This document shows, piece after piece, positions 20,305 to 43,381 of a stretch of DNA of 64,000 nt. Positions within the stretch are counted from its first letter, which is position 1, and each line of letters opens with the position of its first letter. This DNA is from Vicinamibacterales bacterium (GTDB lineage Bacteria; Acidobacteriota; Vicinamibacteria; Vicinamibacterales; UBA8438). A program made the position numbers and the translations under genes. The stretch spans positions 132,638 to 196,637 of the forward strand of contig CBDBOU010000003.1 of assembly GCA_965208535.1 (NCBI GenBank). Reading direction: 5' to 3'. Under the pieces are notes generated by a model. That model was not told the DNA's origin and ran no database searches. It saw only the letters and a list, made by a program, of their open reading frames with translations.

Positions 20305-20393
20305 GGCCGGTGGAGCAGGGGCGCCTCTCGAGAACGGCGCGGCGCGCGGAGTTCCACCTCAAGGGCGGCGTGCCCGTCGATACGATGCAAGTG

Positions 20394-23702
<3,309 letters not shown>

Positions 23703-23816: not shown

Positions 23817-24398
23817 ATGACTCACGAATCCGGAGCCCAAACAATGACGGTCCCAGGCCGGGTCATGACGGCGGAAGAGTTGATTCGCCTGCCCGACGAC
23901 AACTGTCGTTACGCCCTCGTCGGAGGGGAGTTGCAGCGGATGAACCCGGCAGGATTCGAACATGGCGCCGTCATCGTCAACCTGACCATTCCTCTGGGAC
24001 AGCATGTGAAGGCGCACCGGCTCGGCGTGGTTTGCGGCGCGGAGACCGGCTTCGTCCTGGCCAGGGACCCCGACACGGTGCTCGCGCCCGACATCGCGTT
24101 CGTCCGTCGCGACCGCGTGCCGGCGACCGGCCGCCCGACGTTCTTCTGGGAGGGCGCGCCGGATCTGGCGGTGGAGGTGACCTCGCCGGGGGATTCGCGC
24201 CCCGAGGTCGCCAGGAAGGTCGAGGCCTGGCTGTCGGCCGGAACCCTGGTTGTCTGGGTCGTGGATCCGAAGCATGCCTCGTTGGCGATTCACGAGCCCG
24301 GCCGGGCGGTCCGCCGCCTTGGCGAATCGGATACGCTGGACGGCGCCCCGTTGCTGCCGGGCTTCACCCTTCCGGTGCGCGAGATCTTCGCCCCCTAG
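23817..24398 (+). CDS. Uma2-family (PD-(D/E)xK-like) protein
   Basis: ELVGGEL, PDIAFV, PDLAVEVTSP, VWVVDP, LLPGF. Confidence 0.9.
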   Translation: MTHESGAQTMTVPGRVMTAEELIRLPDDNCRYALVGGELQRMNPAGFEHGAVIVNLTIPLGQHVKAHRLGVVCGAETGFVLARDPDTVLAPDIAFVRRDRVPATGRPTFFWEGAPDLAVEVTSPGDSRPEVARKVEAWLSAGTLVVWVVDPKHASLAIHEPGRAVRRLGESDTLDGAPLLPGFTLPVREIFAP

Positions 24399-24560
24399 GA
24401 GTCCGGGGTGAAACCCCGCGTAGCACCGAGAGCGGCGAGGCGCCCGCGTGGCAAGGCGCGACGAGGGACCATATTGGGCATATTCGACCGAGGAGCAACG
24501 CAGTCCACGCGGGATGCATCGCCGCTCGAATGCAGCGGGGCTTTTGCCACGGGCTCCTAG
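24395..24560 (+). mobile_element. 166-bp MITE with CTAG termini, starting at the Uma2 stop codon
   Basis: Imperfect TIRs CTAGGAGTCCGGGGTGAAACCCCG / CTAGGAGCCCGTGGCAAAAGCCCCG; close copy at 41664-41829. Confidence 0.85.
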
Positions 24561-38865: not shown

Positions 38866-38922
38866 TTGTGATTCGCGTGTGCAACGAATCGGTCCGTCAT
38901 CGCCCGGACGGCGTCCCGCCGG

Positions 38923-41841
38923 TCAGGGGCGCCAGGTGATTCCGAAGCTGATCGAGCGTCCCAGGTTGTAGGTGCGCTGGGTCGGGCCGTCCGCGCCCTG
39001 CGTGTACACGTAGTCCTGGTCGGTCAGGTTCGACAGGGCGACCTTCAGGCTCGCCTGGTCCCAGCGCGTCGAGAAGACGAGGTCGAGCGACTGGCGTCCC
39101 TTCTCGACGATGTCGGGCAGCCCCAGGGAGCCGACGTCGCTGATGCGGTCGTCGAAGTAGTTCCAGAGCAGGCGGCCGGAGAAGCCCGGGCCGCGAACTT
39201 CCAACAGCGCGTTGAGCAGGTTGGCCGAAGTGCCGGCAAGGGGCCGGACGAGCGAGGTTTGCACCTGGCGGGAGGCGGGCGACAGCGTCACCTCCGAATC
39301 GACGTAGGTGTAATTGGCGCCGACGAGGATGAACGGGCCGAGGAGGGAACGCACCTCCAGCTCGAGGCCGGCGTTCTGGGCGGTCTCGGCGTTGGTGAAC
39401 GACGTGCGCAACTGCGCGGTCGGCTCGACGATGCGCTCGATGGGGTCGTCGAACTGCTTGAAGAAGAAGCTCGCCGAGATGACCTCCTCGGCGCCCGGGA
39501 ACCACTCCCAGCGCGCGTCGAAGTTCTGGATCAGCGACTGCCGCAGGTTGGGGTTGCCGACCACGGCGCGTCCGCCGACCACGTCGGTGAACTCGAACGG
39601 CGAGACCTCGCGGAACTCGGGGCGGTTGACGGTCTGGCTGTAGCCGATCCGGATGTTCTGCTCGGTCGTCGCGGAGTAGACGAAGTTGACCGCGGGGAAG
39701 AGGTTCGTTTCGTCGAGCGACGCGGTCAGCACGTCGCCGGTCTGCTGGTCGAGCGTCCCCGCGAACGGATCGAGCGTCTCGACCTGCTGGGAGAACTGCT
39801 CGACGCGCGCGCCGGTGACAAGGCGGGTCCGCGCGGAGAGCGGCAGGTCGACCATGCCGTAGAACGCGCCGACGCGTTGCGCGGCGTCGTAGCGGTCGGT
39901 GCCGCGGGTCTCTTCCCGCAGCTCGAAGGCGCGGCCGATGTTGGCCGGAGCGAAGATCTCCTCGACCGGGGCCGACAGGTCGACGCCCGCGGCGTTGCGC
40001 GGCGTGAAGCGGAGGCGCCGCGACAGGAAATCGCGGTCCCGGTCCAGGTAGCTGCTGCCGAACTTCACCTGGGAGGCCAGGCCGTCCCACTGCTCGAACA
40101 GCGTGCTCCAGTTGCCCGAGGTCTCGACGGTGTTGTCGAGCAGGTCGTTGAACTGCCGCAGGCCGCTCTGCGACTCGTCCGCGAGGACGTAGGCCGAGCG
40201 GGCCGGGTCGAACTCGTAGAGCGCCTCGCGCAGGTCCGGCTCTTCCCGATCGGCGCGCGACAGGGCGATCTTCCAGTCGAGGCGGCTGTTCGAGAGCGTG
40301 GGGAAGAGGTGCTCGCCACCGAAGTGGTGGCTGCTGATCTGCTCCTCGACCCACCACAGCCGCTGGTTGCGGAGGTTCTCGCCGACGTCGTCGTTGTAGC
40401 CCTCGAAACGGCGGGTCTCGTTGGTGCCGACGTGGGTCAGGAAGTTCTCGAGCGACAGCCGCTGGTTCGGCGTGAACTGGTAGGCGATGTTGCCGACGCC
40501 GCCGATGACGCCCGACCGCTCGCTGATCTCGAAGTCGTACGGTCCGTTGAACGGCTCCACGCCACGCTGGCCCACCTTGTAGTACGTCTGCTGCTCGGTG
40601 TTGTACTGCGCGCTCTGCGCGTGGCGGAGGGTGGCGACGACCCCGAGCTTGCCGAAGCGGCCCCCGAACATCGCGCTGTACGACTGGTCGAGAGGCATGG
40701 TCTCCGGCCGGGGGTCCCACACGTTGTCGAACGACCGGCCGATCTCCCGCAGCTCGTCGGGCGTGAATCCGACGCCCGCGGGCGAGAAGCGCCCGCGGCG
40801 GGTCAACTTGTTGTCGGGGAAACCGGCCGGAAGCGACCGCGTGCCGTCGTCGAAGCCGGCCCAGTCGCGCCTGCCGCCGGGGTAGCCGAGGCCCAGCGCA
40901 CCGGTGGTCAGGCTGTTCCAGCCGCCCCCCGCCGACACCTCGAACGAGGTGGCGTCGGGCAGCTTCATCGGGACGATCTCGACCAGCCCGCCGGCGAATT
41001 GCGACGGCTTGTCGGGGGTGTAGGTCTTGCTCACCTGCACGCTGTCGATGAGGCCGGTGGGAAACAGGTCGAGGGGCACCACGCGGCGGTCCGGCTCGGT
41101 GGTCGGCAGGGTGACGCCGGCCAGCGTGGTGTTGCTGTAACGCTCGCCGAGGCCGCGGACGAAGACCGACTGGCCCTCGACGACCGAGATGCCGGTGACG
41201 CGCTGCATGGCGTCGGCGGCGTTCGAGTCGTCGTTGGCGGACATCTCGATGGCGCCGATGTTGTCCTGCACGGACGGGGCGCGCATGCGCATCATCATCT
41301 GGGCGGCGGCGGTGGACGAATCGGCCTCCAGGGTCGGGGCGCTGACCACCAGCTCCTCGGCGAACACGTTCGAGCCGAGGGCCACCTGCACGGGGGACAA
41401 CTGGCCCGCGACGACTTCGACGGTCACGTTCGTCTCGGCGTAGCCGGCCATCACGATGCGGATGTCGTAGGTGCCGGGGGGCAGCTCGAGGCGGTAGCGG
41501 CCGTCGATGTCCGTATAGGCGACCTGACCGCTGCCGACGGCCTCCACCGGGACGCCCGGGAGCGTGATCGCGAGGTTCGTGTCGATGACCTCGCCGGCGA
41601 CCCACCCCACCTCCTGGGCCTGCGCCGGCGCCGCGGCGACGACCGCCGACACCAGGACCGACCCCAGGAGCCCGTGGCAAAACCCCTGCTGCATTCGAGC
41701 GGCGCTGCATCCCGCGTGGACTGCGTTGGTTCTCGGGCGAATATGCCCAATATGCTCCCTCGTCGCGTCCTGCCACGCGGGCGCCTCCCAGCTTTCGGCG
41801 CCGCACCGGGGTTCACCACGGGCTCCTGGCTCTCTACGCAT
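38923..41841 (-). CDS. TonB-dependent receptor with N-terminal carboxypeptidase-regulatory-like domain
   Basis: TDIDGRYRL, plug (VRGLGERY, VPLDLFP), barrel, C-terminal Trp. Confidence 0.93.
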   Translation of the reverse strand: MRREPGARGEPRCGAESWEAPAWQDATREHIGHIRPRTNAVHAGCSAARMQQGFCHGLLGSVLVSAVVAAAPAQAQEVGWVAGEVIDTNLAITLPGVPVEAVGSGQVAYTDIDGRYRLELPPGTYDIRIVMAGYAETNVTVEVVAGQLSPVQVALGSNVFAEELVVSAPTLEADSSTAAAQMMMRMRAPSVQDNIGAIEMSANDDSNAADAMQRVTGISVVEGQSVFVRGLGERYSNTTLAGVTLPTTEPDRRVVPLDLFPTGLIDSVQVSKTYTPDKPSQFAGGLVEIVPMKLPDATSFEVSAGGGWNSLTTGALGLGYPGGRRDWAGFDDGTRSLPAGFPDNKLTRRGRFSPAGVGFTPDELREIGRSFDNVWDPRPETMPLDQSYSAMFGGRFGKLGVVATLRHAQSAQYNTEQQTYYKVGQRGVEPFNGPYDFEISERSGVIGGVGNIAYQFTPNQRLSLENFLTHVGTNETRRFEGYNDDVGENLRNQRLWWVEEQISSHHFGGEHLFPTLSNSRLDWKIALSRADREEPDLREALYEFDPARSAYVLADESQSGLRQFNDLLDNTVETSGNWSTLFEQWDGLASQVKFGSSYLDRDRDFLSRRLRFTPRNAAGVDLSAPVEEIFAPANIGRAFELREETRGTDRYDAAQRVGAFYGMVDLPLSARTRLVTGARVEQFSQQVETLDPFAGTLDQQTGDVLTASLDETNLFPAVNFVYSATTEQNIRIGYSQTVNRPEFREVSPFEFTDVVGGRAVVGNPNLRQSLIQNFDARWEWFPGAEEVISASFFFKQFDDPIERIVEPTAQLRTSFTNAETAQNAGLELEVRSLLGPFILVGANYTYVDSEVTLSPASRQVQTSLVRPLAGTSANLLNALLEVRGPGFSGRLLWNYFDDRISDVGSLGLPDIVEKGRQSLDLVFSTRWDQASLKVALSNLTDQDYVYTQGADGPTQRTYNLGRSISFGITWRP
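41664..41829 (-). mobile_element. 166-bp MITE inserted in frame in the receptor signal-peptide region
   Basis: TIRs CCAGGAGCCCGTGG at both ends; interior near-identical to 24395-24560. Confidence 0.88.
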
Positions 41842-42193
41842 GTGACTCCGTTCCCCGACATCGCATCCGGCGCGGCACGCGGCGCCGCCGCCGTCAAGGT
41901 TCCCTACACGATAGCGACGGGGTGTATCCGGTCGATGACCGTTCCGTTAAATCAACGTAAAACGTAGTGCGCGGGGCGCTGGCGGAGGCTGGCGGCTGCG
42001 CCGATAGGGATCCGAGGCGCCGGAGATCCGGCGCGTGCGTCCCGCGCTCGGTCGGCGCGTGCGGTCCGCTCGCGGCCGGCGCGGTCGACCGGCATAAAAT
42101 TGTGTGATTAAAGTGTAATGATTATAACTTTGACTTGCGGCATGCAAGCCGCGGTACAGTAAGAGGCATCGCATTCACTCACGCGGGAGCACC

Positions 42194-43381
42194 ATGTCCA
42201 AGGACCGATTGATCATCTTCGATACCACCTTGCGCGACGGCGAGCAGTCGCCCGGGTTCTCCATGAACACGGACGAGAAGATCCGGCTGGCGCGGCAACT
42301 CGAGGCGCTCGGCGCCGACATCGTCGAAGCCGGATTCCCGATTGCGTCGGACGACGATGCGCATGCCGTAGAGCTCATCGCCCAACAGATCCGGCGTCCG
42401 GTGATCGCCGCGCTCGCGCGCTGCAATCCGGCCGACATCGAGCGGGCCGGCGAATCGCTGCGGCCGGCCGAGCGCTCGCGCATCCACACCTTCATCGCCA
42501 CTTCCGACCTCCACCTGGAGCGCAAGCTGCGGATCGGCCGGGACCAGTGCCTGCAGGCGGTCACCGACGGCGTGACCCAGGCGCGGGGCTACACGGACGA
42601 CGTGGAGTTCTCGGCCGAGGACGCGACCCGCAGCGACATCGACTTCCTGTGCCGCGTCGTCGAGACGGCCATCGCGGCGGGGGCCACCACCATCAACCTG
42701 CCCGACACGGTCGGCTACTGCACGCCGGAGGAGATAGAGGAGTTCTTCACGGAGGTGCGCGGGCGGGTGCGCGGCGCCGACCGCGTCGTCTTCAGCGCGC
42801 ACTGTCACGACGACCTCGGGCTGGCGGTGGCCAACTCGCTGGCCGCGATGCGGGCCGGCGTGCGCCAGGTGGAGTGCACCATCAACGGCATCGGCGAGCG
42901 CGCGGGCAACGCGTCGCTCGAAGAGATCGTCATGGCGACGCGGGTCAAGCCCGACCGGCTGCCCTACACGACCGCCATCGACACGACCCGGCTCGTCCAG
43001 ACCAGCCGGCTGCTGTCGGAGCTGACGCAGGAGCCGGTGCAGGCCAACAAGGCCATCGTCGGCCGCAACGCGTTCGCGCACGAGGCGGGAATCCACCAGG
43101 ACGGCGTGATCAAGGACCGCCGCACCTACGAGATCATGACACCGGCGGACGTGGGCGTGGAGTCGACGCTCGTCCTCGGCAAGCATTCCGGACGGCACGC
43201 GGTGAAGAAGCGCTGCGAGGATCTGGGGCACGAGCTGAGCCGGTTCGAGCTCGATCGGGTCTACCGGGAGGTCATCGCGCTGGCCGACCGCCAGAAGTCC
43301 GTTAGCGACGACGACGTCGCGGCCATCGTCGGACGCCTGCAGGCCGCCGCGCCGGCCGTCGCCGGTGAAGGCGCCGCCTGA
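42194..43381 (+). CDS. leuA: 2-isopropylmalate synthase (short form without C-terminal regulatory domain)
   Basis: [34 protein letters not shown]; only 395 aa. Confidence 0.95.

Follow-up and report, generated by a model that had tools for sequence, protein, structure and literature searches.

In-frame insertion of a miniature inverted-repeat transposable element into the signal peptide of an apparently functional TonB-dependent receptor in a Vicinamibacterales bacterium

Most of what is known about in-frame mobile repeats in bacterial genes comes from Rickettsia, where the fate of the inserted peptide is unclear. How, then, could a gene for an exported protein outlast the insertion of a transposable element immediately downstream of its start codon? 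This question is raised by a TonB-dependent receptor gene of a Vicinamibacterales bacterium, located in the 64-kb window analyzed here (positions 132638-196637 of contig C3 of the metagenome-assembled genome denoted G000, which is 8.4 Mb in size with 68.7% G+C; G000:C3:132638-196637). In this gene, a miniature inverted-repeat transposable element (MITE) located downstream of codon 4 lengthens the coding sequence of the signal peptide by exactly 162 nt, or 54 codons, ahead of the hydrophobic core. The reading that we favor, with a probability of roughly 55%, is that the MITE resides within the signal peptide and is read through from the ancestral ATG, and that the mature receptor is unaltered. 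The element, with a 158-nt body and a 4-bp target duplication, entered a CTA-G site that separated the charged N-terminus (MRRE) from the core; it was probably mobilized by a transposase of the IS5/IS1182 type, which generates 4-bp duplications at targets resembling CTAG. The gene stayed open after gaining 54 codons because the consensus of the element is free of stops in the orientation and frame of the receptor. Ribosomes would still start at the conserved ancestral Shine-Dalgarno (SD) sequence and ATG and read through the hairpin-forming insert; the product would have a 75-residue presequence with the hydrophobic core and the AQA↓QE cleavage site unchanged, from which signal peptidase would remove the MITE-encoded peptide. 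The in-frame ATG of the MITE itself, which would yield a 26-residue signal peptide consisting of MQQGFCHGLL and the core, may act as a second start.

Copies of the repeat in the G000 genome were identified using blastn and nhmmer, which yielded 73 full-length and more than 100 partial copies; the repeat is present in all 15 analyzed genomes of the genus. The same ends are found in 72 aligned copies, which fall into two subfamilies starting with GAG or CAG, and in the receptor copy the terminal inverted repeats (TIRs) are perfect over 13-14 bp (GAGCCCGTGG...CCACGGGCTC). The 4-nt flanks of the aligned copies are usually CTAG on both sides, and otherwise the direct repeats TTAA, CAAG, CCGG or CCAG. 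Decay of CTAG to CCAG or CTGG is common and occurs singly in many copies; the window copy reads CCAG, body, CTGG. Paired compensatory changes at the two ends of the receptor copy (CTAGCAG to CCAGGAG) were considered and dismissed, being explained by the GAG-type subfamily together with the ordinary CTAG decay. Some of the G000 copies are identical to the consensus and, among 40 copies taken from the sister genome G012, at least 7 correspond to clean empty sites in G000. The inverted ends, the 4-bp duplication, the many copies, the empty sites in the sister genome and an insertion sequence (IS) with the same ends identify the repeat as a MITE, and the family is active. Turnover between the two genomes is high, with 13 of the 40 G012 copies common to G000 at a synonymous divergence (dS) of the receptor gene of about 0.03. 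A search of the repeat against Rfam produced nothing above chance.

The IS in question is 1.5 kb long and is likely the mobilizer of the family. It is present in G000 in nine to ten copies (for example, C2:1587756-1589254, plus at least eight other places), each between 4-bp direct repeats (CTAG, CTAC, GTAG, GTAA, CTAA, ATAA, CAAG and TTCA), agrees with the MITE at 16 of the 17 terminal bases (CAGCCCGTGGCGAAAG), and encodes a 480-aa transposase with the Pfam domains DUF772, DDE_Tnp_1 and DDE_Tnp_1_6. The shared termini, the 4-bp duplications and the DUF772/DDE_Tnp_1 transposase resemble those of IS5/IS1182-type elements and their MITE derivatives; however, the interior of the MITE is unrelated to the G000 IS, and the IS is typed only as IS5/IS1182-type, with no named ISfinder family or group. 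An origin from IS630/Tc1-mariner elements, with a 2-bp TA duplication inside CTAG, was rejected: the MITE flanks CAAG, CCGG and CCAG and the IS duplications TTCA and CAAG contain no TA, and the IS belongs to the DUF772/DDE_Tnp_1 type, not to mariner.

The ancestral state of the receptor locus was reconstructed from 35 element-free orthologues, of which 6 belong to the same genus and were aligned at the DNA level and 29 came from a wider scan. The loci are positional orthologues, as judged by the divergent leuA gene upstream and by DNA alignment, and identities were computed in frame. The first-pass annotation of this stretch had proposed that a MITE splits the signal peptide of the receptor in frame, and the TIRs, the duplication, the additional copies, the 162-nt gap and the open 972-codon reading frame all bear this out. 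The interval it assigned to the event, 41664-41841, has to be divided: 41664-41829 is indeed the element with its duplications, but the last 12 nt (41830-41841) are the original ATG CGT AGA GAG and not repeat. In the element-free orthologues, the alignment gap is exactly 162 nt, in agreement with the claim that the n-region is 54 aa longer with the element, and the signal peptides have 21 residues, as in MRRTIGAILVSTLVAAAPAQA↓QEV. Excision was said to yield a compact signal peptide, and the rebuilt empty site (ATG CGT AGA GAG CTA GGG TCG...) encodes MRRELGSVLVSAVVAAAPAQA, with 21 aa that match the N-termini of the 35 orthologues. An alternative in-frame ATG supplied by the MITE is present as well, at 41694-41692. 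It had further been envisaged that orthologues without the MITE might start downstream of the site, which would make the element a purely untranslated leader; one and the same upstream ATG, preceded by a conserved stretch containing GGAG, is the start in all 35. Signal peptides were judged by inspection and simple descriptors (charge, hydropathy, and the residues at -3/-1); by these, the ancestral form and the orthologues are consistent with Sec signal peptidase I substrates (MRR., a 13-residue core with a mean Kyte-Doolittle value of 2.3, and AQA↓Q). In the carrier gene, the full stretch of core and cleavage region, (G)SVLVSAVVAAAPAQA, corresponds to codons 60-75, with the first base of the Gly codon (41664) falling within the target duplication. 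The insertion occurs at the same site in five independent assemblies, namely, G000, G012 and the ENA metagenome contigs L134, L133 and L132, and so is not an assembly artefact. Separately, in genome G003, which represents another species of the genus, the match to the same receptor orthologue (C171:4295-7279) has an independent MITE copy (C171:4074-4229) about 65 nt away from its 3' end.

In all five carriers, the receptor open reading frame (ORF) is 2919 nt long, open and free of indels. The ratio of nonsynonymous to synonymous substitution rates (dN/dS) is 0.10 between G000 and G012 (20 synonymous and 6 nonsynonymous changes), 0.14 between G000 and L133 (dS 0.11) and 0.17 between G000 and L132 (dS 0.18), and across the carrier comparisons ranges from 0.10 to 0.18. 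The substitutions among the carriers all post-date the insertion and, therefore, the receptor stayed functional; judging by this substitution pattern, the gene is under purifying selection since the insertion. That the gene was inactivated and is now a decaying pseudogene appears extremely improbable. An insertion 12 nt after the start codon, with a hairpin of -94 kcal/mol, could block expression, but dN/dS has remained in this range while the carriers accumulated a synonymous tree length of about 0.27 after the insertion, and there is no stop or frameshift across 2919 nt in five lineages.

The insert itself is conserved among the five carriers, in which variable sites were counted (three of the five sequences are nearly identical). 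Fourfold degenerate sites are variable at 103 of 485 positions (21%) and the spacer upstream of the SD at 37 of 213, with many indels (17%); in the mature part of the protein, codon positions 1, 2 and 3 vary at 47/897 (5.2%), 27/897 (3.0%) and 149/897 (16.6%) sites, respectively. The whole MITE varies at 6/166 sites (3.6%), compared to about 35 expected at the fourfold rate (Poisson P of about 2e-9), with 3/135 variable sites (2.2%) before the internal ATG and 3/31 (9.7%) from that ATG on. The SD plus codons 1-4 have a single variable site among 27 (3.7%; 5.7 expected at the fourfold rate), and the rest of the signal peptide has 5 among 47 (10.6%). Twelve other MITE copies that are orthologous between G000 and G012 served as controls for these two lineages only: they differ at 46/1949 positions (2.4%), with 0.97% in their flanks, and thus seem to drift near neutrally, whereas the receptor copy shows 0/166 differences between the same two genomes. 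By these counts, the insert at the receptor locus is under nucleotide-level purifying selection. The repeat exonisation put forward in the first-pass annotation is hence supported indirectly, by the purifying selection on the gene, the frame that is open in five lineages, and the conservation of the insert and of the SD and ATG far above the neutral level.

The alternative that the insert is a neutral passenger, tolerated since the signal peptide is cleaved off and low in variation owing to recent recombinational spread or local rate variation, is quite improbable in our estimation. The conserved tract is short (about -27 to +158), there are only five sequences, three of them nearly identical, and the differences from the consensus are mostly amino-acid-changing and resemble earlier neutral drift, all of which would fit a passenger. 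Such a passenger would, however, be expected to accumulate variation close to that of the fourfold sites and of the drifting control copies, which it did not. Moreover, the two variable sites common to L132 and L133 follow the gene tree, as fits vertical descent, and the flanks directly beside the conserved tract are variable, so that a recombination tract would need to match the insert almost exactly.

What the selection acts on is less clear-cut. Read in the receptor frame, three of the six insert changes are synonymous, including two of the three located upstream of the internal ATG. When mapped on the predicted hairpin, three changes are unpaired, one improves a pair and two break pairs, too few for a covariation analysis. 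Coding and structural constraints on the insert are not separable because there are only six changes; the constraint likely comes from coding and/or from an mRNA hairpin that is now part of gene expression. The predicted RNA hairpin has a free energy of -94 to -96 kcal/mol in all carriers, and that of the family consensus is -100.6 kcal/mol, with a median of -99 across copies. Two further proposals were discarded: selection that purged stops from the insert is needless, given that the consensus is already open in the receptor frame, and selection that weakened the hairpin for translation is unsupported at -94 kcal/mol versus these consensus and median values.

The census of the 73 full copies in G000, with frame calls based on the G+C content of third codon positions, revealed three further full copies in signal-peptide coding regions (cases A, B and D in Table 1), all in the orientation and frame of the receptor copy. 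In each of these, the ATG of the MITE (MQRGF.HGLL) adjoins the hydrophobic core, and the internal N-terminus retains 2-3 Arg. At the case A locus, the empty site is intact in G012 (GCG CTA GTG), in the place of CTAG-MITE-CTAG in G000. The element of case B is absent from G012, G002, G006 and G003, and there is an adjacent deletion of about 45 nt. The case D insertion is common to G000 and G012 and absent from eight other orthologues. The consensus element is stop-free in the receptor orientation and frame, with an in-frame ATG 30 nt from its end (MQRGFCHGLL); three of its six frames are open, which is about the chance expectation at 69% G+C. The opposite orientation is stop-free in the CTA-G phase, too, but lacks an ATG. 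A single orientation in all four signal-peptide insertions (one-sided P of about 0.06) is a hint that the ATG and the Arg-rich end of the element may help such insertions to be tolerated. Signal peptides, which by our own estimate account for about 1% of coding sequence, hold 4 of the approximately 6 in-frame coding insertions seen. We read this excess as survivorship, the cleaved-off region being the safest coding target.

Which start codon serves the receptor is the point on which the scenarios diverge. The SD and the first codons at the upstream ATG were conserved after the insertion and are intact in all five carriers, so that ribosomes should load there anyway; this ATG lies 12 nt before the hairpin stem. 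The internal ATG is not preceded by an SD, and its first ten codons lie within the 22-bp stem. In all five carriers, the internal N-terminus is without its only Arg (MQRG to MQQG), leaving the n-region of the short form with a net charge of 0.

Nevertheless, it is conceivable, though unlikely, that the internal ATG is the sole productive start, in which case the MITE would have brought a portable start and n-region (MQRGF.HGLL) that replaced the lost MRRE, and the old SD and ATG, together with the first 135 nt of the MITE, would form a structured 5' leader. The ATG end lies beside the core in 4/4 full insertions and one remnant, even though the other, ATG-less orientation is equally stop-free; the resulting 26-aa signal peptide is of canonical length; cases A, B and D keep their Arg residues in the internal N-terminus; gene callers choose the internal start; and variation rises after the internal ATG (3/31 and 5/47 sites versus 3/135), as if loosely constrained coding began there. 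Exclusive use of this start is at odds with the absence of an SD, with the locking of codons 2-10 in the 22-bp stem, and with the lack of positive charge in the internal n-region of the receptor copy. It also leaves aside the old SD and ATG, intact and conserved in the five carriers, and the upstream frame, which is still open and indel-free, with most of the few changes upstream of the internal ATG (2/3) being synonymous.

Several observations also weigh against read-through from the ancestral ATG. The n-region of the long form would be unusual, with 58 residues including 8 Arg and 6 Asp/Glu, for a net charge of +2. Public gene calls start at the internal ATG, giving 923 aa compared to 918 aa for the empty-site orthologues. 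The placement of the ATG end next to the core in all four full signal-peptide insertions and the remnant, with the opposite orientation also stop-free, is an orientation bias that seems to implicate the internal ATG. Conservation of the insert extends to third codon positions, so the constraint is not simply on the peptide. Finally, there are about 20 unexplained differences from the family consensus that are private to the receptor copy. These differences mostly change amino acids and include a cluster in which, within 13 nt, the alignment places two deletions and two insertions of 1 nt each. A search for a source subfamily in the 15 genomes found a best copy that is at most 88% identical, and none of the copies share the variants. 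Most of the private differences appear to predate the L132 split, and with it the divergence of the five carriers. This accumulation seems faster than neutral drift would allow, as the MITE-free G002 lineage is little farther away (dS 0.21 versus 0.18).

On balance, we favor the conserved upstream SD and ATG as the start, possibly together with the internal ATG. The upstream ATG is probably used, at least in part, and the odds that the internal ATG contributes seem about even. Whichever start serves, the predicted mature receptor would be unchanged, beginning with QEVGW. Tryptic peptides from residues 1-49 of the long form include CGAESWEAPAWQDATR and TNAVHAGCSAAR. Long N-terminal extensions of signal peptides have precedents: in some autotransporters, about 25-30 additional N-terminal residues precede the normal n/h/c core of the Sec signal peptide, and export still takes place. 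The predicted long form of the receptor resembles these in having an N-terminal extension ahead of an ordinary Sec core, but the autotransporter extensions are conserved and family-specific, whereas that of the receptor has 54 residues, is recent and derives from a transposon.

A broader proposal, which we regard as rather doubtful, is that the MITE is a portable cassette of a start codon and n-region for exported proteins, and that the receptor insert has since been domesticated as a control element for expression or export. The last 30 nt of the element would encode MQRGF(R/C)HGLL, and insertion in the CTA-G phase at the n/h boundary would regenerate a working signal peptide. Under this proposal, the receptor insert would be as conserved as mature second codon positions because it was domesticated.

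Insertions into genes are not confined to signal peptides. Twenty-nine full copies are entered by the reading frame of a gene, and in 25 of these the TAG of the leading CTAG is the stop codon of that gene; such stop-codon seats take about a third of the 73 full copies; in a genome with 69% G+C, CTAG occurs mostly at stop codons or as CTA-G. Additional in-frame copies are found within an AAA-type ATPase and a DnaE2-like polymerase (Table 1). In the latter, the Pfam HHH_6 match is stretched to 132 residues, compared to 90 positions in the profile, and therefore an insert of about 40 aa is read in frame.

In-frame insertion of small palindromic repeats has been described before. A 2024 review (PMC10969869) describes the Rickettsia palindromic elements (RPEs; Ogata et al. 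2000) as mobile palindromic repeats of roughly 150 bp located in frame in coding genes. As described there, RPEs resemble this MITE in being in-frame, palindromic and mobile, with an open ORF and the host gene kept. They differ in that RPEs reside in metabolic and housekeeping proteins, with the insert staying in the mature protein, whereas four copies of the MITE are in predicted cleavable signal peptides, so that the insert should be removed or bypassed; in addition, the MITE family can be linked to a clear transposase partner, makes 4-bp duplications and has been active recently, and its host is a free-living soil acidobacterium. The same review reports translational fusions with host ORFs for intragenic enterobacterial repetitive intergenic consensus (ERIC) sequences, BOX elements and other MITEs (Delihas 2007 and others; PMC10969869). 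Like the MITE studied here, these repeats are small and non-autonomous, and their open frames are fused to host ORFs in frame; compared with what is described there, this MITE recurs at one kind of site in a single orientation, carries its own ATG, and has selection measured on one insert. Insertion of a MITE into a signal peptide goes unmentioned in PMC10969869, and further full-text literature searches, which were not exhaustive, yielded no case. In-frame MITE insertions of the RPE kind are thus already known; the signal-peptide setting appears to be new.

The features of the locus and the other MITE copies discussed here are listed in Table 1. The receptor has Plug, TonB_dep_Rec_b-barrel, OMP_b-brl_3 and N-terminal CarboxypepD_reg domains, all above the Pfam cut-offs, with CarboxypepD_reg at residues 81-155, Plug at 188-274 and the TonB_dep_Rec beta-barrel at 484-877. 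A spurious second frame of the receptor gene, rich in Arg, Gly and Pro (38897-41806, minus strand), is open over 969 codons, and the orthologous loci were still retrieved with high "identity" by a query in this frame, a pitfall for automated searching of genomes rich in G+C. Upstream of the gene, a block that is nearly invariant in the DNA alignment of 8 genomes of the genus is a candidate promoter or operator. A scan of 41400-42250 for sigma-70 promoters and terminators gave no matches, and the block itself had no match in Rfam.

Table 1. Coordinates of the receptor locus, the MITE and other copies of the family; positions without a contig name are those of the 64-kb window, and C1, C2 and C3 are contigs of G000.
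Feature	Position	Strand	Sequence or size	Remarks
TonB-dependent receptor ORF	38923-41841	-	972 codons from the ancestral ATG, 2919 nt	Open
Original hydrophobic core and cleavage region	41617-41663	-		Ends at predicted AQA↓QE
Target-site duplication, copy 2	41664-41667		CCAG on plus strand	Decayed CTAG
MITE body	41668-41825		158 nt, ends GAGCCCGTGG...CCACGGGCTC	TIR 13-14 bp; long hairpin, about -94 kcal/mol as RNA
MITE-internal in-frame ATG (codon 50)	41692-41694	-	Yields MQQGFCHGLLGSVLV	No SD; top of 22-bp basal stem
Target-site duplication, copy 1	41826-41829		CTGG on plus strand	Decayed CTAG
Ancestral start and codons 2-4	41830-41841	-	ATG CGT AGA GAG (MRRE)	Not repeat; same ATG starts the 35 element-free orthologues
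SD-like motif	41846-41849	-	GGAG	4 nt upstream of ancestral ATG
Conserved upstream block	41907-41968	-	ACGTTTTACGYTGATTTAACG.A.CGGTCAT....GATACA....TATCGT, about 60 nt	Outside the MITE; in spacer shared with divergent leuA
Second full MITE copy in window	24395-24560	-		Leading CTAG gives the TAG stop of the upstream gene (...REIFAP, stop)
Partial MITE	22881-22990	-	Profile positions 34-144	Inside DnaE2-like polymerase III alpha ORF, 20310-23702 (+)
Case A	C2:315219-315384		MYPPSSLRRSAL-MITE-VAAVLLVPAGSFA↓QDE	706-aa protein, Big_1/LVIVD domains
Case B	C3:343250-343415		MKK-MITE-PLAIICAS...	DUF5916/CBM9 protein
Case D	C3:3812839-3813004		MIRARLSARRTTGT-MITE-ALLLVAFGC	Lipoprotein
MITE remnant	C3:3682918-3682974		57 nt; MQRGHFRGLS directly before MACAVLLAFVAGC	Lipoprotein
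Full MITE, opposite orientation, in frame	C1:49343-49508		587-codon ORF	AAA-type ATPase, about 28 residues after Walker A GGNASGKST

The tolerance of these insertions would have a simple reason: processing would discard the segment of the protein that carries the insert, or initiation at the ATG of the element would skip it. The four signal peptides hit within G000 are natural replicates, and for one of these the sister species shows the intact empty site; in addition, one old insertion can be followed through five lineages in which the host gene and the insert both appear to be under selection. For annotation, the consequence is that gene callers shift the starts of such genes into the repeat, as in the 923-aa call for the receptor versus 918 aa for the orthologues. 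The insertions bear on the length of n-region that the Sec pathway tolerates and on how transposons may remodel 5' coding regions without killing the genes.

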